This document shows, in pieces, positions 2,022-44,109 of a DNA stretch of 64,000 nucleotides. Below the pieces are notes generated by a model. That model ran no database searches, was not told the origin of the DNA, and saw nothing but the letters and a program-made list of their open reading frames with translations. The stretch is from an uncultured delta proteobacterium (GTDB lineage: Bacteria; Myxococcota; Myxococcia; Myxococcales; Anaeromyxobacteraceae), in the NCBI GenBank assembly GCA_963828255.1, contig CAWHDZ010000021.1:96001-160000 (forward strand). Direction: 5' to 3'. Positions within the stretch are counted from its first letter, which is position 1. The number at the start of each line of letters is the position of its first letter. A program made the translations under genes and the position numbers.

Positions 2022-3470
<1,449 letters not shown>

Positions 3471-3475
3471 CTCGC

Positions 3476-4621
3476 CTACCTTTTCACTAGGAGTGCTACC
3501 GCGTGGGCGGCGATGCCCTCGCCCCGCCCCACGAACCCGAGCCCCTCGCCGGTGGTGGCCTTGACGTTGACCTGCGCCGGCGAGACGCCGAGCGCCTCGG
3601 CCAGGCGGGCGCGCATCTCGTCGGCGCGGGGGGCGATCTTCGGCCGCCGGGCGGCCAGCGTCACGTCGCAGTTCCCCACCGTCCAGCCCAGCGCCCGCGC
3701 CTTGGCCGCCACCTCGCGGAGCAGGTGGAGCGAGGAGACCCCCTTCCAGCGCGGGTCGGTGTCGGGGAAGTGGCGGCCGATGTCCCCCAGCCCGGCCGCG
3801 CCCAGCACGGCGTCGCAGATGGCGTGGGCGCAGATGTCGGCGTCGGAGTGGCCGAGAAGGCCGTCCCCCTCGAACGGGACGCCGCCCAGGACGAGCTTCC
3901 GCCCCGGGGCGAAGGCGTGGACGTCGTAGCCCACCCCCGTGGCCACCGCCGGCTCGAGCAGCGCCCGGGCCCGGGCCAGGTCGTCCGGCCCGGTGATCTT
4001 GAAGTTCCCCGGCTCGCCGGGGACGAGCGCGACCTCGGCGCCGAGCGCCTCCACCAGCTGGCACTCGTCGGTGGCGCCGGCGGCGGCCGGCCCGGCCTCG
4101 GCGAAGGCCCGGCGGAGGAGCGGGGCTCGGAAGGCCTGTGGCGTCTGGGCCAGCCAGAGCACCCGCCGGTCGAGCGTCTCCACGACCCGGCTCCCCTCCC
4201 CGCGCTTCACGGTGTCGGTGGCCGGGAGGGCCGCCAGCGCCGCCCCGCGCGCCGCGGCAGCCTCGGCCACGGCCCGCGCCAGCTCAGCCGTCGCGAAGGG
4301 TCGGGCGGCATCGTGGACCACCACCACCGCGACCTCACCCAGCGCCTCGAGGCCGGCGCGGACCGAGTCGGCGCGGGCCGCTCCTCCGGCCACCGCGCGG
4401 ACGGGGACCGGGAGCCCCTGGAGGTCGGCCGCACCGCGGGACTCCTCGCCGGCCGGGACCACCACCACGATCTCATCGACCACGCCGCTCGTGGCGAGCG
4501 CGCGCGCCGCCCGCCGGACCACGGTCTCGCCGCCGAGCGTCGCCCACTGCTTGGCGACGCCGGCGCGGAGGCCGGAGCCGCCCGCCGCGACGATCCCGCC
4601 CACCCGCTCGCCCCCGATCAA
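3476..4621 (-). CDS. ispDF: Bifunctional IspD/IspF (MEP pathway)
   Basis: IspD motifs AAGGSGLR, VHDAARPF, AQTPQAF, KIT fused in one ORF to IspF motifs GYDVH, GHSDAD, NVKATTGEGLG; TTG start after GGAGG. Confidence 0.93.
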   Translation of the reverse strand: MIGGERVGGIVAAGGSGLRAGVAKQWATLGGETVVRRAARALATSGVVDEIVVVVPAGEESRGAADLQGLPVPVRAVAGGAARADSVRAGLEALGEVAVVVVHDAARPFATAELARAVAEAAAARGAALAALPATDTVKRGEGSRVVETLDRRVLWLAQTPQAFRAPLLRRAFAEAGPAAAGATDECQLVEALGAEVALVPGEPGNFKITGPDDLARARALLEPAVATGVGYDVHAFAPGRKLVLGGVPFEGDGLLGHSDADICAHAICDAVLGAAGLGDIGRHFPDTDPRWKGVSSLHLLREVAAKARALGWTVGNCDVTLAARRPKIAPRADEMRARLAEALGVSPAQVNVKATTGEGLGFVGRGEGIAAHAVALLVKR

Positions 4622-4793
4622 GGCGCCTCCACCGGGCTGGCACTCCTCGTGCTCTCGCCCATCCTCGATGAACGTCCGGCACGCCACGCCACGATCCGTC
4701 CCCCGGAAACGAGACCGCCGCACGGGCCATGGGCCGCGCGGCGGACGTCGTCCCTGCCGATCCGAAACGGCATGCCGTCCCGGACCCGGGCCA

Positions 4794-5309
4794 TCAGGTG
4801 ATGTTGAAGATCTTCCGGAGCTCCGTCTCGACGTCCTGCTCGTCGCAGTCCTTGGCGATGGCCAGCTCCTTGATGAGCAGCGACCGTGCCGTGTCGAGCA
4901 TCTTGCGCTCGCCGAAGGAGAGATCCTTGTCGGAGCGGAGCAGGTAGAGGTCGCGCAGCACCTCGGCGATCTCGAAGACCGAGCCGGTCTTGATCTTGTC
5001 CATGTACTCCCGGTACCGGCGGTTCCAGGTGGTGGAGTCGACCGAGACCTCCTTCTCGCGGAGGATCGTGTAGACCTTGCGGACCTCCTTGTCGCCGATG
5101 ATCTCGCGCAGGCCGACCGAGCCGACCTTGTTCATCGGGATCATGATCTTCATCCCGTTGTCGAGGATCCGGAGCACGTAGAAGGACTGCCGCTGGCCGG
5201 CGACCTCCTTGTGCTCGATCCCCATGACCTCGCCGACGCCCTGGCCAGGGTAGACTGCCTTGTCCCCGACCTTGAAGATCGGGCCCAACTGATTCTGGAT
5301 TGCCGCCAT
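4794..5309 (-). CDS. cdnL: CarD/CdnL family RNAP-binding transcription factor
   Basis: FKVGDKAVYPGQGVG, TWNRRYRE, LSFGERKML; cdnL-ispDF-cysS synteny. Confidence 0.95.
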   Translation of the reverse strand: MAAIQNQLGPIFKVGDKAVYPGQGVGEVMGIEHKEVAGQRQSFYVLRILDNGMKIMIPMNKVGSVGLREIIGDKEVRKVYTILREKEVSVDSTTWNRRYREYMDKIKTGSVFEIAEVLRDLYLLRSDKDLSFGERKMLDTARSLLIKELAIAKDCDEQDVETELRKIFNIT

Positions 5310-5384
5310 TCGTTCCTCCGCCCCGCTGCCGGTGTCGCCTGCACCCGGGATATCGGGCGGGCGGGCGCTGGGCCTGGAGCGCGG

Positions 5385-5413
5385 ACCCTACCACAATGGT
5401 TGAGCCCCGTCAA
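5385..5413 (-). promoter_or_regulatory. Sigma70-type promoter of cdnL operon
   Basis: TTGACG-17 bp-TAGGGT on the minus strand. Confidence 0.6.
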
Positions 5414-5464
5414 TATTGAAAGAATCGCTCGATTTCGGGCTTTTTCTTGAGGAATTCAAGGCAG

Positions 5465-7765
5465 ATGCAGATCGCGGCGGTCGCGTTCGCCGCGGGAGCC
5501 GGCGCCGCCATCTCCTTGAAACCAGGGGCGTTGGCAGCATTGGCAGGAATCGTCCCCGCCGTCTCGGCAGCCTGGGTTAGCTGTACCCCCCTCGCCTTCG
5601 CCGCTGCTGGATGGGTCGCAGCGGCAGCCTCCACGGCATCCCAGTCCTCCCCCGTTACGGGGTCATCTGCCCTCCGTGGGGAGGTCATTTCCATGCCCCG
5701 AAGGCAGGAGGACCGGGCCCGCTTCCTCCTCTCCGACCCCTCGCGAGGGCGGGTCGAGGTCTCGGCTCCCGACCTGGTCGCCCCCCTCGCCCCGGGCGAC
5801 CAGGTCCTCCTGTCGGTCGAGATCCGCGAGCCCAGGGGAGCCCGGAACCCGGGGGGTCGCGACGGCACCGTCGCCATGGCGGCCCACGGTGTCTCCGCCC
5901 AGGCATGGACGCGAACCCCGCCGGCCCGCTCGGCCCCGCCCTCGGCGCTCTCCGCAGTGGCGGCAGCGCGGCTCCGGTTCGGCGCCACGGCGTCGGGGGT
6001 CCTGCCGCTGCCGGAGGCGGCGCTCGTCCGGGCCATCGGCGCCGGCGACGAGTCGCAGGTTGACACGGCGACCCGGGAGCGCTTCGCGCGGAGCGGGCTC
6101 GCCCACGTGCTCTCGGTCTCCGGCCTCCACCTCGCGGTCGTGGCGCTGGGGAGCTTTCGCGCCCTCCAGGCGCTCCTGCTCCGGGTGCGCCCGCTGTCGT
6201 CGCGCCTCGACGTCCGGCGCGCAGCGGCGGGCGCCTCCCTCCCGGTGGCCGCTCTCTACGCGGTCGCCACCGGGGCGTCGGTGCCTGTCCTCCGCTCGGC
6301 CCTCGCCGCCGGGCTGGTATTCACCTCCGTCCTCCTCGGGCGCCGCACCGACGCCGCCTCGGCGCTGGCCATGGCGGCGCTCGTCCTGCTCGCCGTCGAT
6401 CCCGGCTCGCTCGTGGACGTGTCGTTCCAGCTCTCCTTCGCCTCGGTGGCCGGGCTCGTCGCGCTCTCCGGCCCCTTCCGCGCGGCGCTCCCCTTCCGGG
6501 CGGACCGGTCGGGCTGGCGCGCCCGGGCGCTCGAGGCGGCGCTCCAGGGGGCCTGCGCCAGCGCCGCGGCCACCGTGGCCACCGCTCCCCTCCTGGCGCT
6601 CCACTTCCGGAGCCTCTCCCTGGTCGGCGTGATCTCCAACGCGGTGGCGTTGCCCCTCGCCTCCGCGCTCACCGTCGTCGCGGCGCTCGCCTTCCTGGCC
6701 AGCGCCGCCCTGCCGCCCCTCGCACCCGCGCTCCTCTGGTCCTGCTGGCCGCTCGCCACGGCGTTCCTCCGGGTGAACGACGCCTTCGCCGCGCCGTCCT
6801 TCGCCTCGGTGGGCGTGGCCTCGCCGGGCTGGGGACTCGTCTGGGCCGCCTACGCGGCGGGCATCGGGGCGTTCCTGGCGCGCGGCCGCCTCCGCTGGTT
6901 GCTCGCCGCCGCCGGGCTCGCCGCCCTCCTCCTGCCCGGCCCGGCCAGGCTCCTCGCCTCCCGCGCACGGAACGGGATCGAGGTGGTCTTCCTCGCGGTG
7001 GGCCAGGGGGACTGCACCATCGTCCGGCTCCCCGGCGGCACGGCCGTGGTGATCGACGCCGGCGGGGATCCCTCCGGCCGGTACGACCCGGGCGCGCGCG
7101 ACGTCCTCCCCTTCCTGCGCGACATGGGGGTGACGCGGCTCGCCGCCGCCTTCGTGTCCCACCCGCACCCCGACCACCTGCAGGGACTCCCGGCGGTGGT
7201 GGCGGGCCTGGGCGCCCGGAACGTCTACGCGTCCCACGACCGCGGCGACGAGGCCGCCCGCGCCGCCTTCGCCCGCATGCCCCCGGCGACGGTGCTCGCG
7301 GCCGGGGACGAGGTCGACCTCGAGGGCGTCCGCTTCCGGGTCCTCGGCCCGCCGCCGGGCGACACGCGCCTCGTCGAGAACGACGCCTCCCTGGTCCTCC
7401 ACGTCACCTACGGTCAAACCTCCTTCCTGCTTCCGGGCGACGTGGAGGCGGCCGGGGAGGCCGCGCTGGCCGCCGCCGGCATCCCCCGCGCCGACGTGGT
7501 CAAGGCGCCGCACCACGGGAGCCGCACCAGCTCCGGGCGCGGGCTCGTCGCCGCCACGCACCCACGCTGGGTGGTCTTCACGGTTGGTCTGGGCAACCGG
7601 TACGGATTCCCCCACGCCGAGACGGTGGAGCGCTGGCGGGAGTCGGGCGCGGAGATGCTCCGGACCGACGAGGGTCCGGTCCGGTTCCGTTCCGACGGCC
7701 GGGCGGTGTGGCGCGCCGGGCCGGAAGCCGCCATCGACGCCTGGGCGCTCCTGGGGGGGAGGTAG
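5465..7765 (+). CDS. comEC: ComEC/Rec2 DNA-uptake channel with C-terminal metallo-beta-lactamase domain
   Basis: SGLAHVLSVSGLH, SFQLSF, VGQGD, SHPHPDH, PHHGS, NRYGFPH; start codon uncertain (5447 or 5465). Confidence 0.93.
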   Translation: MQIAAVAFAAGAGAAISLKPGALAALAGIVPAVSAAWVSCTPLAFAAAGWVAAAASTASQSSPVTGSSALRGEVISMPRRQEDRARFLLSDPSRGRVEVSAPDLVAPLAPGDQVLLSVEIREPRGARNPGGRDGTVAMAAHGVSAQAWTRTPPARSAPPSALSAVAAARLRFGATASGVLPLPEAALVRAIGAGDESQVDTATRERFARSGLAHVLSVSGLHLAVVALGSFRALQALLLRVRPLSSRLDVRRAAAGASLPVAALYAVATGASVPVLRSALAAGLVFTSVLLGRRTDAASALAMAALVLLAVDPGSLVDVSFQLSFASVAGLVALSGPFRAALPFRADRSGWRARALEAALQGACASAAATVATAPLLALHFRSLSLVGVISNAVALPLASALTVVAALAFLASAALPPLAPALLWSCWPLATAFLRVNDAFAAPSFASVGVASPGWGLVWAAYAAGIGAFLARGRLRWLLAAAGLAALLLPGPARLLASRARNGIEVVFLAVGQGDCTIVRLPGGTAVVIDAGGDPSGRYDPGARDVLPFLRDMGVTRLAAAFVSHPHPDHLQGLPAVVAGLGARNVYASHDRGDEAARAAFARMPPATVLAAGDEVDLEGVRFRVLGPPPGDTRLVENDASLVLHVTYGQTSFLLPGDVEAAGEAALAAAGIPRADVVKAPHHGSRTSSGRGLVAATHPRWVVFTVGLGNRYGFPHAETVERWRESGAEMLRTDEGPVRFRSDGRAVWRAGPEAAIDAWALLGGR

Positions 7766-38385: not shown

Positions 38386-40230
38386 GTGCCCACCAAACCC
38401 TCTCCTCCCGCATCCTCCCTCCCGGGCAGGCCGCGCCACGTCCGGCGCGCGGTCGTGGGGGCGCTGGCGGCCTCGGTGGTCGTCGCCGCCTGGGCGGGGG
38501 TGCTCGCATGGGGCAACTCTCCCACCGGCCGCGCCCTCATCCGGGAGCGGGCCGGGAGGGCGCTCGAGAGGCGTCTCGGGCCGGTGGAGATCGGGGATGC
38601 CGGCCTCGACCTCCTGCTCCGCGCACGGCTCGCCCCCGTGACCGTGCTGGGGCGGGGCCCCGGCGGACCGGTCCTGAGGGCCGACAGGGTGGTGGTCCGT
38701 CCCCGCCTTGGGGCCCTCCTCTCGGGCAGGGTCGAGCCCGCGGCGGTGGCGCTCCGCGGCGTGCGGGCCTGGCCGGGCCGTGAGGGGCGGGAGCTGGGGC
38801 CCTTCGACCTCTACGTCGAGCTCGACGGCCGCGACCCGGTGGCGCTCCGGGTGGCGCTCCCGGGTGGCGGGCACCTCGACGCGACCGCGCGGCGAGGCTT
38901 GGACGGCTTCGCGTTCCAGCTCGAGGGCGCGGTCACGCTGCCCGACGACCTCCCGGCCGTGGCGGGCGGGCCGGCCTCCGCGCCGGCCTCCGGGCTGCTC
39001 ACCGTCCGGGGATCGGGCCGGGCAGCGCCGGACGGCGGCCGCGCCGAGGCGGACGTCGTCCTCCGCGCCACCGACCTGACCTTCCACGGAACACGGGTCG
39101 GCCCCTCGCCGATCGGCCCCCTGTTCCTGGGCGCATCGGGGCGGGTCGCCTGGAACGGCCCCTCGAGGCGTCTCGTCGTCGAGGGGGGACAGGTCACCCT
39201 GGGTGAATCCGGCGAGGTCGCCGCGTCGGTGGAGGGGGAGCTCCTGCTCGGAGGCGACCCCCGCTTCACCGTCTCCGCGCGGGCCACCGCCGTCCCCTGG
39301 CGCGCCCTCGTGGAGGCGCTCCCCCCCGACCTCGGTCCTCCCGCGACCGCACCCCGGATCTCCGGGAACCTCTCCGCCCAGGCCTCGGTGGCCGGCCCGC
39401 TCTCCCGCCGCGGCGACTGGGCCGTCGAGGTCGAGCTCGACCTCGACGATCTGCGCCGGGCCGCGCGGACCGCCCCTCCCTCCTGGCTCGCCTCCGGGTT
39501 CGAGTGGACGCCCATCGACCCCGGTCCGGGCGAGCGCCAGCGCCGCATCGCGGTGGGACCGGGCAACCCCGCCTTCGTCCCCTACCCGGAGATCCCACAG
39601 GTGCTGGTGCGGGCCGTCACCGCCAGCGAGGACGGCGGCTTCTTCGGCCACCGCGGCTTCGACTTCCGCGAGATCGCGAACGCCGTCACCGATCGGAGCC
39701 GCGTCCGGGGCGCATCGACGATCTCCCAGCAGCTCGCGAAGAACCTGTTCCTGTCGCCGGAGCGGACGCTCGCGCGCAAGGTGCGCGAGGCGCTCGGGAC
39801 CATCGCCCTCGAGGCCAGCCTCTCGAAGGGGCGGCTCATCGAGATCTACCTGAACATCGCCGAGTGGGGACCGGAGGTCTACGGCGTCGGGGAGGCGGCC
39901 CGGTTCTGGTTCGGGAAGGACGCCCGCGCGCTCACCGCACGGGAGTCGGCCTTCCTGGCCACGGTGGTCCCGAGCCCGCGAAGGTTCCACGCGCGGCTCC
40001 ACCGCTCCGGGATCACGCCCGGGTGGAACGCCCGCATCGACGACGTGCTCACCAAGATGCGGGCGCAGAACCAGCTGACCGACGAAGAACTGGCGGTGGC
40101 GCTGGCGGAGCCGCTCGACCCGCTCGTCCGCGAGCACCACGCCGGCCCCGCCGGCGTGGAAGGGGGCGAACCCGAACCTCCCGAGATGGACGAGGAGCAG
40201 GGATCCGGCGCGCCCTACTTGTCGCGGTAG
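38386..40230 (+). CDS. Monofunctional peptidoglycan transglycosylase (GT51) with long N-terminal extension
   Basis: [44 protein letters not shown]-terminal TM. Confidence 0.85.
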
Positions 40231-40436
40231 GTGATGCGGCCGCGCGTGAGGTCGTACGGGCTCAGCTCCAGCTTGACGCGGTCGCCGGGGATGATGCGGA
40301 TGTGGAACTTCTTCATCTTGCCGGACGCGTAGGCAAGCACCACGGGGCCGCTGTCGATCTTGACGCGATACATGCCTCCGGCGAGGGCTTCCTCGACGGA
40401 GCCCTGAACTTCGATTCCTGCTTCCTTTTCGCTCAA
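40215..40436 (-). CDS. infA: Translation initiation factor IF-1
   Basis: [40 protein letters not shown] start after GGAG. Confidence 0.94.
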
Positions 40437-40601
40437 TCGCTCTCCTGGTTTCGCAGCCTTATAGCCCGGATGCGCCTGAACCACCCCGGAATTCCGAGGC
40501 CGCTCGAAGGCGGGGGCCCCGGGCGACTTGCCCGGATTCCGGGCGGAATATCCCCAATGAACGGGGGCGCGTCAAGCGCGGGCATCGCGGAGAGCGGGCG
40601 C

Positions 40602-40988
40602 TCAGGAGCCGGAGGAGGCGAACTGGGCCAGGAGCAGCCCGGCCAGGCCGGCCACCCAGGCCCCGAGGACGGTGGCCGCGACGTAGGCCGAGGCGAGCCC
40701 CCACTGTCCCCGCTGGGCCAGCGCCAGGGTCTCGTGGTTGAACGAGGAGTAGGTGGTGAAGCCGCCCAGCACTCCCACCGCGAGGAAGATCCGGACGTCA
40801 GGACCGATCGTCCCGACCTCCAGCCCCAGGTACATGACGGCCGAGATGAAAAAGGAGCCCGAGAGGTTCACCGCCAGCGTCCCCCACGGGAACCCCTGAC
40901 CCACGGCGGCGACCGCCCAGCTTCCCACGAGGTAGCGTGCGCCGCTTCCGATGGCGCCACCGGCGCAGACGAGCAGGAGCTTCGACAT
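40602..40988 (-). CDS. crcB: Fluoride efflux channel CrcB/FluC
   Basis: GGAIGSGARY, PWGTLAVN..GSF, GVLGGFTTYSSF..E. Confidence 0.95.
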   Translation of the reverse strand: MSKLLLVCAGGAIGSGARYLVGSWAVAAVGQGFPWGTLAVNLSGSFFISAVMYLGLEVGTIGPDVRIFLAVGVLGGFTTYSSFNHETLALAQRGQWGLASAYVAATVLGAWVAGLAGLLLAQFASSGS

Positions 40989-41024
40989 GGGCGGCGCGAA
41001 GTCTAGGCTCCCTGGCCGGCGCCC

Positions 41025-41471
41025 TCAAGGCCCCATCGCGCGGAGGAGCGCCCCGGCGCGCCTCGCCACCTCGTCGCCGCCGGCCTGGAGGTCGGAAAGG
41101 TCACCCCGGGCCGCCTCGCGCCTCCCCGTCCCTCCCGTGCCCGCATCGGCGGGAACCGCCAGGAGCGCCTCCGCCCGGGCCAGCCGGACCTGCCGGTCCC
41201 CCGGCGAGAGCCGGGCCGCCGCCTCGGCGCAGAGCAGCGCGGTGTAGGGCTCCCCGCGCCGCCGCTCCACCTGCGAAAGCAGCGCCCAGGCCAGCGCGTC
41301 GCGCGGGTTGGTCACCACGAGCCCCTCCAGGATGGCGCGGGCCACGGCGAGGTCGCCGCTGGCGGCCTCCCTCGCCGCCAGCGAGGCCACCGCGGCGCCC
41401 ATCTCCGCGGTGAAGCCCTGGATCTCCGCGAGGGTGCGCCCCGCCTTCAGCTCCTGTGCGGTCGGGATCAC
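41025..41471 (-). CDS. TPR protein resembling SycD/LcrH/CesD class II T3SS chaperones
   Basis: 148 aa; G.TLAEIQGFT leader then TPR helices (GDLAVARAILEGLVVTNPRD..AWALL, AA.LSP.D..V.L.RAEALL); GGAGG RBS, 9 nt after the upstream stop. Confidence 0.65.
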   Translation of the reverse strand: MIPTAQELKAGRTLAEIQGFTAEMGAAVASLAAREAASGDLAVARAILEGLVVTNPRDALAWALLSQVERRRGEPYTALLCAEAAARLSPGDRQVRLARAEALLAVPADAGTGGTGRREAARGDLSDLQAGGDEVARRAGALLRAMGP

Positions 41472-41480
41472 GTTCGCCTC

Positions 41481-42401
41481 CTACCGGACGTTCTGGATGG
41501 CCACCATGGTGGTGTCGTGCATGCTCTTCAGGAGGTTCGAGACCAGCGTGAACATCTGGTTCTGCTTCTCGACCAGCCGCTGGATCTCGAGCATCTCGAG
41601 CCGCTCGTCGGGCGAACCGGCTTCCCCCTTCTTGGCCGGGGTGGTCGCCTTGGGCGTCGAGGTGGTGGTGGGCTTCGACGTGGTTCCGGTCGTGGTCTTG
41701 GTCGGCGTCGCCTTCGCCTTGTCGCCCGTGAGCACGCCGGCCAGGGCGCCGCCCAGGCTCTCCCCGAACTTGAGCGCCGCGGGGGCCAGCACGGGAAGGC
41801 CGACGGCCGTCGCCAGCGCGGCCAGCAGCGGGCCCCCCAGCGACTTGAGCGCGCCGCCGAGCAGGTCCTCGAGCCCCCCTATCAGCTTGTCGAAGATGCC
41901 GCCCGACGGGAAGATGGCGCGGAGGATGCTCCCCAGGAAGCCCCCGCCCTGGTTCTCCTTCGTCTCCGTGCCCCCCTCGCCGTACTTCGCCTTGTAGTCG
42001 TTCATCTTGTCGGTCAGCTGGTCGCCGAGCTTCTTCTGCACCGCGATCATGAAGCGGGAGAGCTTCTCCTCGACGCTGAGCGACGGGTCGGAGAGGAAGG
42101 CCCAGTCTCCGGTGGCCTTCACCCCGGACGACGCCGCGCCCGCGACCAGGGCCCCGGCGTAGCCCGCCCCGGATCCCTTCCCGGCGGCCGCGGGCGCCAC
42201 CAGCCAGGGGGTGGGCGCCGTGGCCCCGACACCCTCGGTGAACCAGGGGAGGAGCGCGGCCACGCCCACCGGCGGCCCCTCCAGGGAGACGGCAGGGCTC
42301 CCCGGCGAGCGGATGGCGGCGGGCGAGCGGTCCGATGCAGCCGGATCGTCGGGCGGGACGGTGATGCGCGGAGCGACGGGAGCGGCCTGCGTGGGCGCCA
42401 T
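41481..42401 (-). CDS. Hypothetical protein with a T3SS needle/filament-like C-terminal helix and a hydrophobic central segment
   Basis: GAGGAGG RBS; no Sec signal; Pro/Ala-rich N-terminus; ends IQRLVEKQNQMFTLVSNLLKSMHDTTMVAIQNVR. Confidence 0.65.
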   Translation of the reverse strand: MAPTQAAPVAPRITVPPDDPAASDRSPAAIRSPGSPAVSLEGPPVGVAALLPWFTEGVGATAPTPWLVAPAAAGKGSGAGYAGALVAGAASSGVKATGDWAFLSDPSLSVEEKLSRFMIAVQKKLGDQLTDKMNDYKAKYGEGGTETKENQGGGFLGSILRAIFPSGGIFDKLIGGLEDLLGGALKSLGGPLLAALATAVGLPVLAPAALKFGESLGGALAGVLTGDKAKATPTKTTTGTTSKPTTTSTPKATTPAKKGEAGSPDERLEMLEIQRLVEKQNQMFTLVSNLLKSMHDTTMVAIQNVR

Positions 42402-42446
42402 GTGTGGACCTCCTCATCCGGGGTGGAACCTGCGGAGCCTCCCCTC

Positions 42447-42462
42447 GCACCCGCCGTGCCGC
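42447..42462 (-). promoter_or_regulatory. Candidate sigma54 (-24/-12) promoter
   Basis: GCGGCACGGCGGGTGC on the minus strand: GG-N10-GC with a GGCACG core. Confidence 0.55.
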
Positions 42463-42539
42463 GCCCCCTGGCGCGCATTCCCCCGCCGTTCCGCCCCCGC
42501 GTGGTCGCATCCGCGCACACACGGCCGAGGCGCGGACGA

Positions 42540-42577
42540 TTGACCCCACGCCGGCGCGCTCCTACATTCCCCCCGTG
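42540..42577 (+). promoter_or_regulatory. Sigma70 promoter with leaderless geometry for ruvX-mltG
   Basis: TTGACC-17-TACATT-6 nt-GTG, no SD. Confidence 0.65.
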
Positions 42578-42988
42578 CGCTACCTCGGAATCGACCTGGG
42601 ACGGGCCCGGATCGGGCTCGCCCTCGCCGACGACATCCTCCGCGCGGCCCGGCCGCTCAGGGCCGTCGAGCGGCGCGACGAGACCGCCGACCTGGGCGTC
42701 ATCGGCGCCGTGGCCGGGGAGTACGAGGTGACCCGGGCCGTGGTGGGGCTGCCCCTCAACATGGACGGGACCGAGGGCGCCTCGGCCCGCATGGCCCGGT
42801 CCTTCGCTCCCCGCCTGGCGGCCGCGCTGGGCGTCCCCGTGGACCTCTTCGACGAGCGGCTCTCCACCTTCGAGGCCGAGGATCGGCTGCGCGCGCGCGG
42901 GGTCTCCGCCCGGGACATGAAGGCGCTCGTGGACGCCGAGGCCGCGGCGGTGATCCTCCAGGGCTGGCTCGACGAGAGGCCGGCGTGA
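42575..42988 (+). CDS. ruvX: Holliday junction resolvase-like YqgF/RuvX
   Basis: YLGIDLG..RIGLALAD, VVGLPLNMDG, DERLST, VD..AA..ILQ. Confidence 0.93.
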   Translation: MRYLGIDLGRARIGLALADDILRAARPLRAVERRDETADLGVIGAVAGEYEVTRAVVGLPLNMDGTEGASARMARSFAPRLAAALGVPVDLFDERLSTFEAEDRLRARGVSARDMKALVDAEAAAVILQGWLDERPA

Positions 42989-44109
42989 AGGTCGTCCGGC
43001 TCCTCGGCCTCCTGGTCTTCCTGGCCGTGGCCGCCGGAGGCGCCTTCGTCTGGACCACCTGGCGGGAACTGCGCGCCTTCCGCGACACCCCCTTCGGGAG
43101 CGGCTCCGAGAAGATCGTCGAGATCGACCCGGGCACCAGCGCCCACGGCGTCATCCGGCGGCTGGCCGAGTCCGGCGTCCTCTCCGACGAGGAGACCGCC
43201 TGGCGCTACATGCGGATGTGGAAGCGGGACAAGCGGATGCTCAAGGCCGGCGAGTACGCCTTCAGCGGCCCGCTCCTCCCCGACGACGTGCTCGAGCGCA
43301 TCTACAAGGGCGAGGTGAAGAGCTGGAAGTTCACCGTTCCGGAGGGGCTGCGCGCCGACGAGATCGCGCCGATCATCGAGAGGGCGTCGCTGGGGCGATC
43401 GGCGGAACTGCTCGCCCTCATGCGCGACCCCGACGTCGCTCGGGATCTCGAGCTGCCCTTCCCCTCGATGGAGGGCTTCCTCTTTCCCGACACCTACGCC
43501 TTTCCACGGAGCGTGAAGCCCGGGGACCTGCTCGCGGCCATGGTCGCCCGCTACCGCGAGGCCTGGAAGCGGGCCGATGCGCGGCGCCGCCCGGGCGTGA
43601 CCCTCGACGAGGGGCAGGCGGTGATCCTGGCCTCCATCATCGAGAAGGAGACCGGGAGGGGCGACGAGCGGCAGCGGATCTCCTGCGTCTTCCACAACCG
43701 GCTGGCCAGGGGGATGAAGCTCCAGACCGACCCCACCGTCATGTACGCCACCATGCTGCGCAAGGGCGGGCGCTGGTCGAACAACATCACCCGGAAGGAC
43801 CTCGCTACCCCGCACCCCTACAACACCTACGCCGTGGCCGGCCTGCCCCCGGGCCCCATCGCCAACCCGGGCGAGGCGGCGCTGGTCGCGGCCGTCTCCC
43901 CGTCCGACTGCAAGGACCTCTACTTCGTGTCGCGGAACGACGGCAGCCACGTCTTCTGCCCGGATCTCCGCTGCCACCAGGCCGCCGTGCGGGAGTGGCA
44001 GGTCGAGTTCTTCCGCGCCCGGAAGGCCGCGCGGGAGAGCGCGAAGGCCCCCGTGGAAACCCCCGCCCCCGCGGAGGCAACGGTCCCGGAGTCGCCGCCC
44101 CGCGGCTGA
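42985..44109 (+). CDS. mltG: Endolytic transglycosylase MltG
   Basis: T.PEG, EGFLFPDTY, LASIIEKET, LQTDPTV.Y, YNTY..GLPPGPI.NPG. Confidence 0.95.
   Translation: MKVVRLLGLLVFLAVAAGGAFVWTTWRELRAFRDTPFGSGSEKIVEIDPGTSAHGVIRRLAESGVLSDEETAWRYMRMWKRDKRMLKAGEYAFSGPLLPDDVLERIYKGEVKSWKFTVPEGLRADEIAPIIERASLGRSAELLALMRDPDVARDLELPFPSMEGFLFPDTYAFPRSVKPGDLLAAMVARYREAWKRADARRRPGVTLDEGQAVILASIIEKETGRGDERQRISCVFHNRLARGMKLQTDPTVMYATMLRKGGRWSNNITRKDLATPHPYNTYAVAGLPPGPIANPGEAALVAAVSPSDCKDLYFVSRNDGSHVFCPDLRCHQAAVREWQVEFFRARKAARESAKAPVETPAPAEATVPESPPRG

Follow-up and report, generated by a model that had tools for sequence, protein, structure and literature searches.

A gene pair with a needle-like tail and a chaperone-like TPR protein probably tied to the myxobacterial type III secretion system

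A two-gene unit was analyzed in a 64,000-nucleotide window (G000:C21:96001-160000, the whole stretch of DNA analyzed) from an Anaeromyxobacteraceae genome of 4.3 Mb (G000, 99% complete). Gene 1 (41481-42401, minus strand, ATG start) encoded a protein of 306 amino acids (aa), and gene 2 (41025-41471, minus strand, GTG start) encoded a tetratricopeptide repeat (TPR) protein of 148 aa. With a probability of about 0.6, the pair encodes a needle-family, membrane-active protein exported by a secretion system of type III (T3SS) together with its class II-like chaperone, and constitutes an unlinked, sigma54-driven accessory operon of the myxobacterial T3SS. The tie of the pair to type III secretion was well supported by context.

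The needle-like tail of gene 1, its paralogue in the sctF slot and the chaperone-like partner

The original prediction had called the C-terminus of gene 1 needle-like after alignment with a PrgI sequence. Here, Shigella MxiH from pCP301 was taken as the needle reference. In a gapless alignment anchored at the C-terminus, the tail of gene 1 had 11 identities with the last 43 residues of MxiH; among 100,000 shuffles, the score was reached once and the identity count four times. When the C-termini of 3,941 coding-like open reading frames (ORFs) of the genome were compared with MxiH, the product P0114 ranked first (score 39, 14 identities) and gene 1 second (score 34), and the third score was 16. 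The likeness of the gene 1 tail to MxiH exceeds chance.

A 48-column profile of the tail domain (A2), built from 21 sequences of both subfamilies, was searched against 177,635 PDB sequences. The best match was chain F of 7y6c (E 6.8e-4), a chain of 43 residues whose entry title names a needle-protein co-chaperone complex, and all other matches had E values of at least 0.28. Alignment of A2 with MxiH by hhalign gave a probability of 63% over 43 columns, reaching both C-termini. No likeness to the Shigella inner rod protein MxiI was obtained with A2 or with A5, the profile of the short subfamily; therefore, the tail resembles SctF rather than an SctI of the MxiI type. In a search of the whole genome with PF09392, the gene 1 tail was the sole match (E 0.15). 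The full-length profile of the gene 1 family was also compared with the PDB and was set aside, as it gave chance-level matches only (histone H2B, a capsid protein). The MxiH alignment, the PDB match and the hhalign result thus bore out the needle-like C-terminus. The reading of the tail as a remote helix of the needle family had marginal support from sequence alone and strong support from context.

P0114 was a 152-aa protein with no Pfam or NCBIfam family, and its gene was found on contig C17 followed on the same strand by an SctI-like ORF, sctJ, sctQ, a FliO-like ORF, sctR, sctS, sctT, sctU and sctV (sctJ was assigned by YscJ_FliF and sctQ by FliMN_C). The SctI-like ORF (124 aa) shared 48% identity over 56 residues (E 5e-16) with an ORF of another genome, which itself had sub-threshold SctI matches in Pfam (E 3.5e-4) and NCBIfam (E 0.0096). 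The order P0114, SctI-like ORF, sctJ copies mxiH-mxiI-mxiJ of Shigella, which places P0114 in the sctF (needle) slot. Contig C11 carried sctL (FliH) and sctN (T3SS ATPase) together with a sigma-70-family gene (257 aa; L008 14694-15467, minus strand, G000:C11), which had the same orientation as sctL-sctN, directly preceded them and was itself downstream of rpoC.

Gene 1 itself is unlinked to the apparatus and lies on contig C21 between crcB and ruvX, while its paralogue P0114 holds the sctF slot on C17. A profile of 35 gene 1 family members (A1) matched P0114 over profile positions 202-310 (E 2.4e-9), i.e., over the hydrophobic segment, the linker and the tail, and in BLASTP the last 39 residues of gene 1 and P0114 were 44% identical (E 3e-10). 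Gene 1 thus resembles a protein of the P0114 type extended at the N-terminus by about 190 residues. Among 20 loci from other Myxococcota, a strong P0114-like gene was found in nine, and in eight of these it was upstream of sctJ on the same strand, separated from it by 0.4-0.5 kb (short loci) or about 2.4 kb (long loci); the remaining locus was a contig of 6.3 kb.

These results changed one part of the original prediction, in which the pair had been described as an orphan module with no secretion apparatus nearby. The sctV, sctU and T3SS ATPase matches were indeed all on other contigs, so these T3SS genes are not nearby; C17 and C11 of the same genome nevertheless carry a T3SS. The pair is not an orphan, given sctJQRSTUV on C17, sctLN on C11 and a tail-domain paralogue in the sctF slot. 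The genome search that had been proposed, for sctRSTUVN and for paralogues with the same tail, recovered sctRSTUV, sctN and P0114. The suggested link to a distant, needle-less myxobacterial T3SS was supported by the gene set of the two contigs and by the co-occurrence with sctV described below.

Gene 1 was divided into five parts according to A1, Kyte-Doolittle hydropathy and the secondary structure of an AlphaFold monomer. The model had a mean predicted local distance difference test (pLDDT) score of 47, and for this reason its secondary structure alone was used. The N-terminus (residues 1-97; 42111-42401, minus strand) was Pro/Ala-rich, poorly conserved, devoid of a Sec-type hydrophobic stretch and predicted to be disordered (pLDDT below 50 over residues 2-95). 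It contained a conserved short motif, W-L/T-V-x-P, at residues 66-70, in which V68 was nearly invariant. Binding of translocators to their chaperones follows a PxLxxP rule; the motif of gene 1, PWLVAP, fits this rule, and we take it to be a candidate chaperone-binding site. Residues 98-142 (41976-42110, minus strand) formed a conserved amphipathic helix (FLSDPSLSxEEKL) with F102, L103, E111, F117 and Q122 invariant in A1; the helix spanned residues 110-140 in the model and was also present in the distant relatives L035, L036, L022 and L040. A likeness of this middle helix to harpins had no Pfam support and was dropped.

The third part (residues 143-222; 41736-41975, minus strand) was a Gly/Leu/Ala-rich hydrophobic region with one transmembrane-grade segment at about residues 187-213 (Kyte-Doolittle 19-residue peak of 2.08 at residues 192-210) and with G201, P203, L205, A206 and P207 invariant in A1. 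It was followed by a variable Thr/Lys-rich linker (residues 223-262; 41616-41735, minus strand) and by the needle-like helix up to the terminal Arg (residues 263-306; 41484-41615, minus strand), which was the best-conserved part of gene 1. The protein contained no Cys. Its sequence and segments were the same in the ORF translation as had first been described, including the C-terminal 33 residues.

Gene 2 had TPR repeats as its only Pfam matches, and its best NCBIfam match was LcrH_SycD (TIGR02552; E 7.7e-7). A 13-sequence profile of gene 2 (A3) matched the PDB sequences of PcrH (E 1.5e-12), SycD (E 8.2e-10) and AcrH (E 5.1e-9), collinear over positions 11-141. Alignment of the gene 2 profile with IpgC by hhalign gave a probability of 76% and included the N-terminal G-x-TL motif. 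The gene 2 model (pLDDT 93) had an all-helical three-TPR fold with an N-terminal helix. The Foldseek comparison that had been proposed was run against the PDB and placed IpgC, SycD and AcrH at ranks 1-3 (E 4.5e-5 to 1e-4, TM about 0.70); the 18 matches at E<=0.001 also included PcrH and Scc3, interleaved with Hip and designed TPR proteins. The earlier assignment of gene 2 as SycD/LcrH-like was thus upheld by NCBIfam, profile, hhalign and Foldseek comparisons. By sequence and predicted fold, gene 2 is probably a distant member of the class II T3SS chaperones.

Distribution of the family and alternative readings

All 113 homologues of gene 1 were named hypothetical. Assemblies of Anaeromyxobacter (Anaeromyxobacter sp. 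PSR-1 among them) and of Anaeromyxobacteraceae were the source of its relatives. The order ruvX / gene 1 - gene 2 - crcB was kept across 11 loci, with gene 2, ruvX and crcB each present in ten of the 11, and every miss fell at a contig end. In a locus from another family (L023), a gene 1-like gene and a TPR gene were found next to ruvX-yceG. In L040 (G044:C317, from another family of the phylum), positions 2502-5630 on the minus strand contained one same-strand run of sctU, a 143-aa ORF without a family, a TPR gene (144 aa) and a gene 1-like gene (376 aa). The TPR gene of L040 had a weak HrpB1_HrpK match, and upstream there were three AIM24 genes and a gene with a metallo-beta-lactamase fold; no further T3SS gene was found within the 10.9 kb examined. 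Another relative, L031 (7195-8172, plus strand, G141:C6), encoded a 325-aa gene 1-like protein with collagen-like Gly-x-y repeats; its genome belongs to the same phylum and has a size of about 1.6 Mb (73% complete). It had the top needle_F score of the analysis (E 1.4e-4, 22.4 bits), which was under the cut-off, and a divergent 181-aa TPR gene was located alongside.

Short members of the tail-domain family were found within a secretion locus. In a long T3SS locus of the Myxococcaceae (L043 8108-9628, minus strand; G194:C1, about 3844100-3845630), four identical tandem ORFs of 73 aa carried the tail domain (E 2.2e-8 to A2). They were located between sctV and sctU and flanked by two genes for TPR proteins of about 158 aa; of these, one passed the LcrH_SycD cut-off (112.5 versus 104.8 bits). 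The 73-aa ORFs, which are of needle size in a system termed needle-less, had no Pfam or NCBIfam family match. Two similar small ORFs each were found in G218 and G118.

It is unlikely that gene 1 is a purely structural paralogue of the sctF-slot gene, in which case it would be a second rod or needle subunit building a short periplasmic tube, with gene 2 capping its tail like YscG/PscG. Such a role agrees with the P0114 paralogy, which runs through the hydrophobic segment, linker and tail (positions 202-310), with the best PDB match of A2, a needle fragment complexed with its chaperones, and with the needle-sized tandem members flanked by LcrH-like TPR genes in the long Myxococcaceae locus. However, gene 2 resembled class II translocator chaperones over its full length and not YscG, with no PF09477-type match listed; the hydrophobic segment of gene 1 is of transmembrane grade; and sub-threshold translocator matches were obtained for relatives (SseC twice, SseD once).

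The tail domain was widespread. At E<=0.001, A2 matched 5,214 clusters among 1.84 billion representatives, of which 1,024 also reached E<=1e-10, and in nearly all of the 150 clusters listed the domain ended at the last residue. The proteins that it capped (P0115-P0256) ranged from 37 to about 870 aa and were unrelated in their N-terminal parts; one of them, P0117 (572 aa), had a phage T4 gp19 tail-tube domain at the N-terminus and two tail-domain matches at the C-terminus. Some genomes had five to seven copies of the domain. When 84 A2 clusters were scanned with Pfam, no T3SS cut-off was passed, and sub-threshold T3SS matches were found in 13 of the 84 (needle_F in seven, HrpA pilin in two, HrpF in two and SseC in two); one further relative had a sub-threshold SseD match (E 0.0053). 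The Atlas search led to unnamed Myxococcota clusters, one of which had PF09392 on 17% of its members.

This breadth bears on the idea that gene 1 is a secreted T3SS effector or a harpin-like membrane-damaging toxin whose tail is an export or docking tag common to many cargos. The position of the domain at the extreme C-terminus of proteins with otherwise unlike N-termini, P0117 among them, its five to seven copies in some genomes, and the Gly-rich, Cys-free composition of gene 1 are what such a tag and cargo would lead one to expect. The export signals of known T3SSs, however, are N-terminal, and no toxin or enzyme domain was found in gene 1 with Pfam and NCBIfam. Conservation in the protein peaks in the tail, which the sctF-slot gene also has; both points fit an assembly interface better than a tag. 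An effector role was considered quite improbable.

Among the family genomes searched for sctV, a non-flagellar sctV like that of G000 was present in 49 of the 55 with an A1 match and in none of the five without one (G170, G335, G340, G377 and G392); a gene was scored as non-flagellar sctV at an identity of at least 47% to that of G000, and the A1 tallies include the unpublished genome G196. Three of the five genomes without an A1 match were 96-100% complete, had only flagellar FlhA and gave no tail-domain match on direct re-search. In both genomes checked among these three, flagellar rod genes were found beside FlhA.

It is very doubtful that the pair has nothing to do with type III secretion, i.e., that a membrane-associated protein and a generic TPR partner happen to have a tail resembling a needle through convergent coiled-coil composition. 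All matches to curated T3SS families were below their cut-offs, the locus lies among housekeeping genes and TPR proteins are ubiquitous, as this reading would have it. It is opposed by the two needle-like tails, which are extreme genome-wide outliers with one of them in the sctF slot, by the co-occurrence with non-flagellar sctV, by the sctU-TPR-gene 1-like run of L040 and by the fold ranking of gene 2. Export by the flagellar type III apparatus, which the original prediction had offered as a second route, has a negligible likelihood: some family relatives (G060, G130 and others) carry a flagellar cluster, as does A. dehalogenans 2CP-C according to the available text of PMC2330069, but it was excluded for G000 itself (99% complete), where no Flg_bb_rod match was found and the sole FHIPEP gene was of the non-flagellar type, and the three genomes with flagella and without non-flagellar sctV lack the gene 1 family.

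Several results weigh against the assignment of the pair to an accessory T3SS operon. Gene 1 was below the cut-off of T3SS_needle_F (PF09392; 13.8 versus 29.4 bits, E 0.067), had no other Pfam match and had no NCBIfam match at E<=1. With 306 aa it is not a hairpin of 70-90 aa, and its monomer model (pLDDT 47) contained no confident hairpin. The profile of the short subfamily (A5) had no PDB relative (only keratin, E 1.5) and reached a probability of 8.6% in hhalign with MxiH, and BLASTP of a 73-aa family member against MxiH gave no alignment. Gene 2 was below the LcrH_SycD cut-off (28.9 versus 104.8 bits), and in the A3 search generic or designed multi-repeat TPR proteins and OGT outscored the T3SS chaperones. 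Of 11 loci of distant gene 1-like proteins, only three had a neighbouring TPR gene like gene 2; therefore, chaperone pairing is not universal. In six genomes with gene 1 relatives (79-92% complete), non-flagellar sctV was not found. The family genomes are kin, and the co-occurrence counts therefore overstate independence. Finally, the sigma54 consensus was not enriched in the window, with 30 matches at two mismatches versus 41 expected.

Promoter and surroundings of the pair

A sigma54-type promoter with a GGCAC-N5-GTGC core was located at 42447-42461 on the minus strand, 45 nucleotides (nt) upstream of the ATG of gene 1. The motif, cGGCACG-N4-GTGC, was invariant in six of six orthologous upstream regions, in which mean column identity was 73%. 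Upstream of P0114, the first gene of the T3SS operon, the same motif recurred at an equal distance (L003, about 7424-7438, minus strand). The promoter was called on conservation and position and not on motif frequency. In the whole genome, GGCACG-N4-[GT]TGC had 24 matches, 13 of which were 15-66 nt upstream of the start of a coding-like ORF. By their N-termini, ORFs downstream of the motif were named as glutamine synthetase-like (glnA-like) and NifH-like, and a gene for a 328-aa membrane protein at C17:163301 was also downstream of a sigma54-type motif. This set of motifs could outline a sigma54 regulon.

The position of the two-gene unit between crcB and ruvX, as originally predicted, was confirmed by the ORF list and the Pfam assignments of the flanking genes. 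On one side were CrcB (40602-40988, minus strand), IF-1 (40215-40484, minus strand) and a transglycosylase (38386-40230, plus strand), and on the other RuvX (42404-42988, plus strand) and YceG (42985-44109, plus strand). At the junction of the pair, the TAG stop of gene 1 was followed by GGAGG and then, 9 nt on, by the GTG of gene 2; the two genes are thus translationally coupled. The GC content across the gene pair region was 70-77% with no break, and no intrinsic terminator was found in window positions 40100-42700. The longest ruvX ORF began at a GTG at 42404, with the RuvX domain only from residue 59, and a sigma70-like promoter match was located within this annotated ORF at 42540-42568 (plus strand). 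The real ruvX start is probably near 42575, which would give a divergent intergenic region of about 170 bp common to ruvX and gene 1.

DNA near-identical to window positions 40500-43000 (<=0.68 of sampled words) was present in metagenome runs of freshwater sediment, pond, wetland and soil from 14 studies. Parts of both genes were covered, at 92-99% likeness, by metatranscriptome contigs from three runs of two studies, and a single contig spanned the junction of the two genes. The coverage is a weak hint of transcription, since such libraries can hold DNA, and uncovered stretches do not count as evidence of silence.

Proposed role and comparison with known systems

Domain likeness, P0114 paralogy, chaperone fold, gene contexts, co-occurrence and common promoter type were observed; export, docking, membrane insertion and chaperone binding are what we infer for an exported, membrane-active needle-family protein. 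In the cytoplasm, the gene 2 chaperone would keep the hydrophobic protein encoded by gene 1 in solution, and export would proceed through the SctRSTUV gate, with SctN and SctL taking part. The C-terminal helix of gene 1 may then dock or polymerise on the SctI-like and sctF-slot (P0114) proteins like needle subunits do, while membrane insertion of the hydrophobic, Gly-rich segment would produce a distal, translocon-like end of the conduit. With no secretin reported, the gene 1 protein might be needle and translocon in one.

A wider proposal, put forward tentatively, is that the needle-less T3SS of myxobacteria may not be needle-less: a divergent SctF-like family missed by curated models would form the missing distal conduit for the predatory lytic cargo of this system (T3SS*). 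The family would consist of the sctF-slot member, the tandem 73-aa Myxococcaceae copies beside LcrH-like chaperones and paralogues like gene 1 that fuse a needle helix to a membrane-inserting segment. The primary T3SS* paper is reportedly that of Thiery et al. 2022.

In the available text of Abby and Rocha (2012, PMC3459982), the short Myxo locus was described as having the inner rod and no SctF, secretin, tip or translocon; it was added there that tip and translocon homologues may have been missed. The description of the G000 T3SS as secretin-less rests on this paper, in which the Myxo system was also placed at the root of all injectisomes and loss of SctF was inferred. In the parts of two reviews that were available (2023 review, PMC10433427; Herrou et al. 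2025, PMC12075869), it was asked how a T3SS without secretin, needle and translocon moves substrates and what its LcrH-like chaperones serve, and several LcrH homologues were mentioned for the myxobacterial T3SS in the former. In the papers that deal with this system, needle and translocon homologues were stated to be absent from it. No needle-like protein for the myxobacterial T3SS was named in the available text of PMC3459982, PMC10433427, PMC12075869, PMC12428579 (2025 review) and PMC2330069, supplements and the primary T3SS* paper aside, where an annotation could pre-empt part of the present finding.

The finding is of interest because it supplies candidate genes where the T3SS* model has an acknowledged gap: the needle-like family in the sctF slot and the hydrophobic paralogues with LcrH-like partners are named candidates for the missing part. 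Standard genetic work in Myxococcus xanthus or Anaeromyxobacter dehalogenans can now address the question of the missing conduit, and, if the proposal is true, the picture of the ancestral injectisome would change as well.

Compared with the SctF needles (MxiH, PrgI, YscF and SsaG; PF09392, TIGR02105), gene 1 had a C-terminal helix of about 43 residues that aligned without gaps to the terminal Arg; a needle fragment was the best PDB match of the tail profile, and the paralogue P0114 occupied the sctF slot, with an SctI-like gene and sctJ downstream of it. Unlike these needles, gene 1 has 306 aa instead of 70-90 aa and no recognisable N-terminal hairpin helix packed on the tail, which is preceded by a hydrophobic Gly-rich region and a Thr/Lys linker. 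It was also below all curated cut-offs, its gene is unlinked to the apparatus, and its partner resembles translocator chaperones and not YscE/YscG.

The pair also resembled the hydrophobic translocators and their chaperones (YopB/YopD-SycD, IpaB/IpaC-IpgC, PopB/PopD-PcrH and AopB-AcrH) in that a hydrophobic protein without a Sec signal is encoded beside a three-TPR protein of about 150 aa with a fold closest to IpgC, SycD, AcrH and PcrH. Gene 1 further shared with them a transmembrane-grade segment and, in its N-terminal part, a conserved short motif to which the chaperone might bind. However, the pair has one hydrophobic protein and not two, the chaperone-like gene is downstream and not upstream, and there is no tip protein. 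Gene 1 had no Pfam match to the translocator families (PF04888/SseC, YopD, IpaC) at E<=0.1, and a needle-like tail is not a documentable feature of translocators. By description, the EspA and Bsp22 filaments are alike in concept, as a larger secreted subunit extends a needle-like polymer via terminal helices; they gave no match by sequence or family, although no search aimed at them was made.

The T3SS of G000 agreed with the myxobacterial T3SS* as described in the available text of PMC3459982, PMC10433427 and PMC12075869, having the short-locus set of sctJ, Q, R, S, T, U and V with an SctI-like ORF on C17 and sctL and N on C11, without flagellar genes. It differed from that published description in having a needle-like family in the sctF slot and unlinked paralogues with LcrH-like partners.

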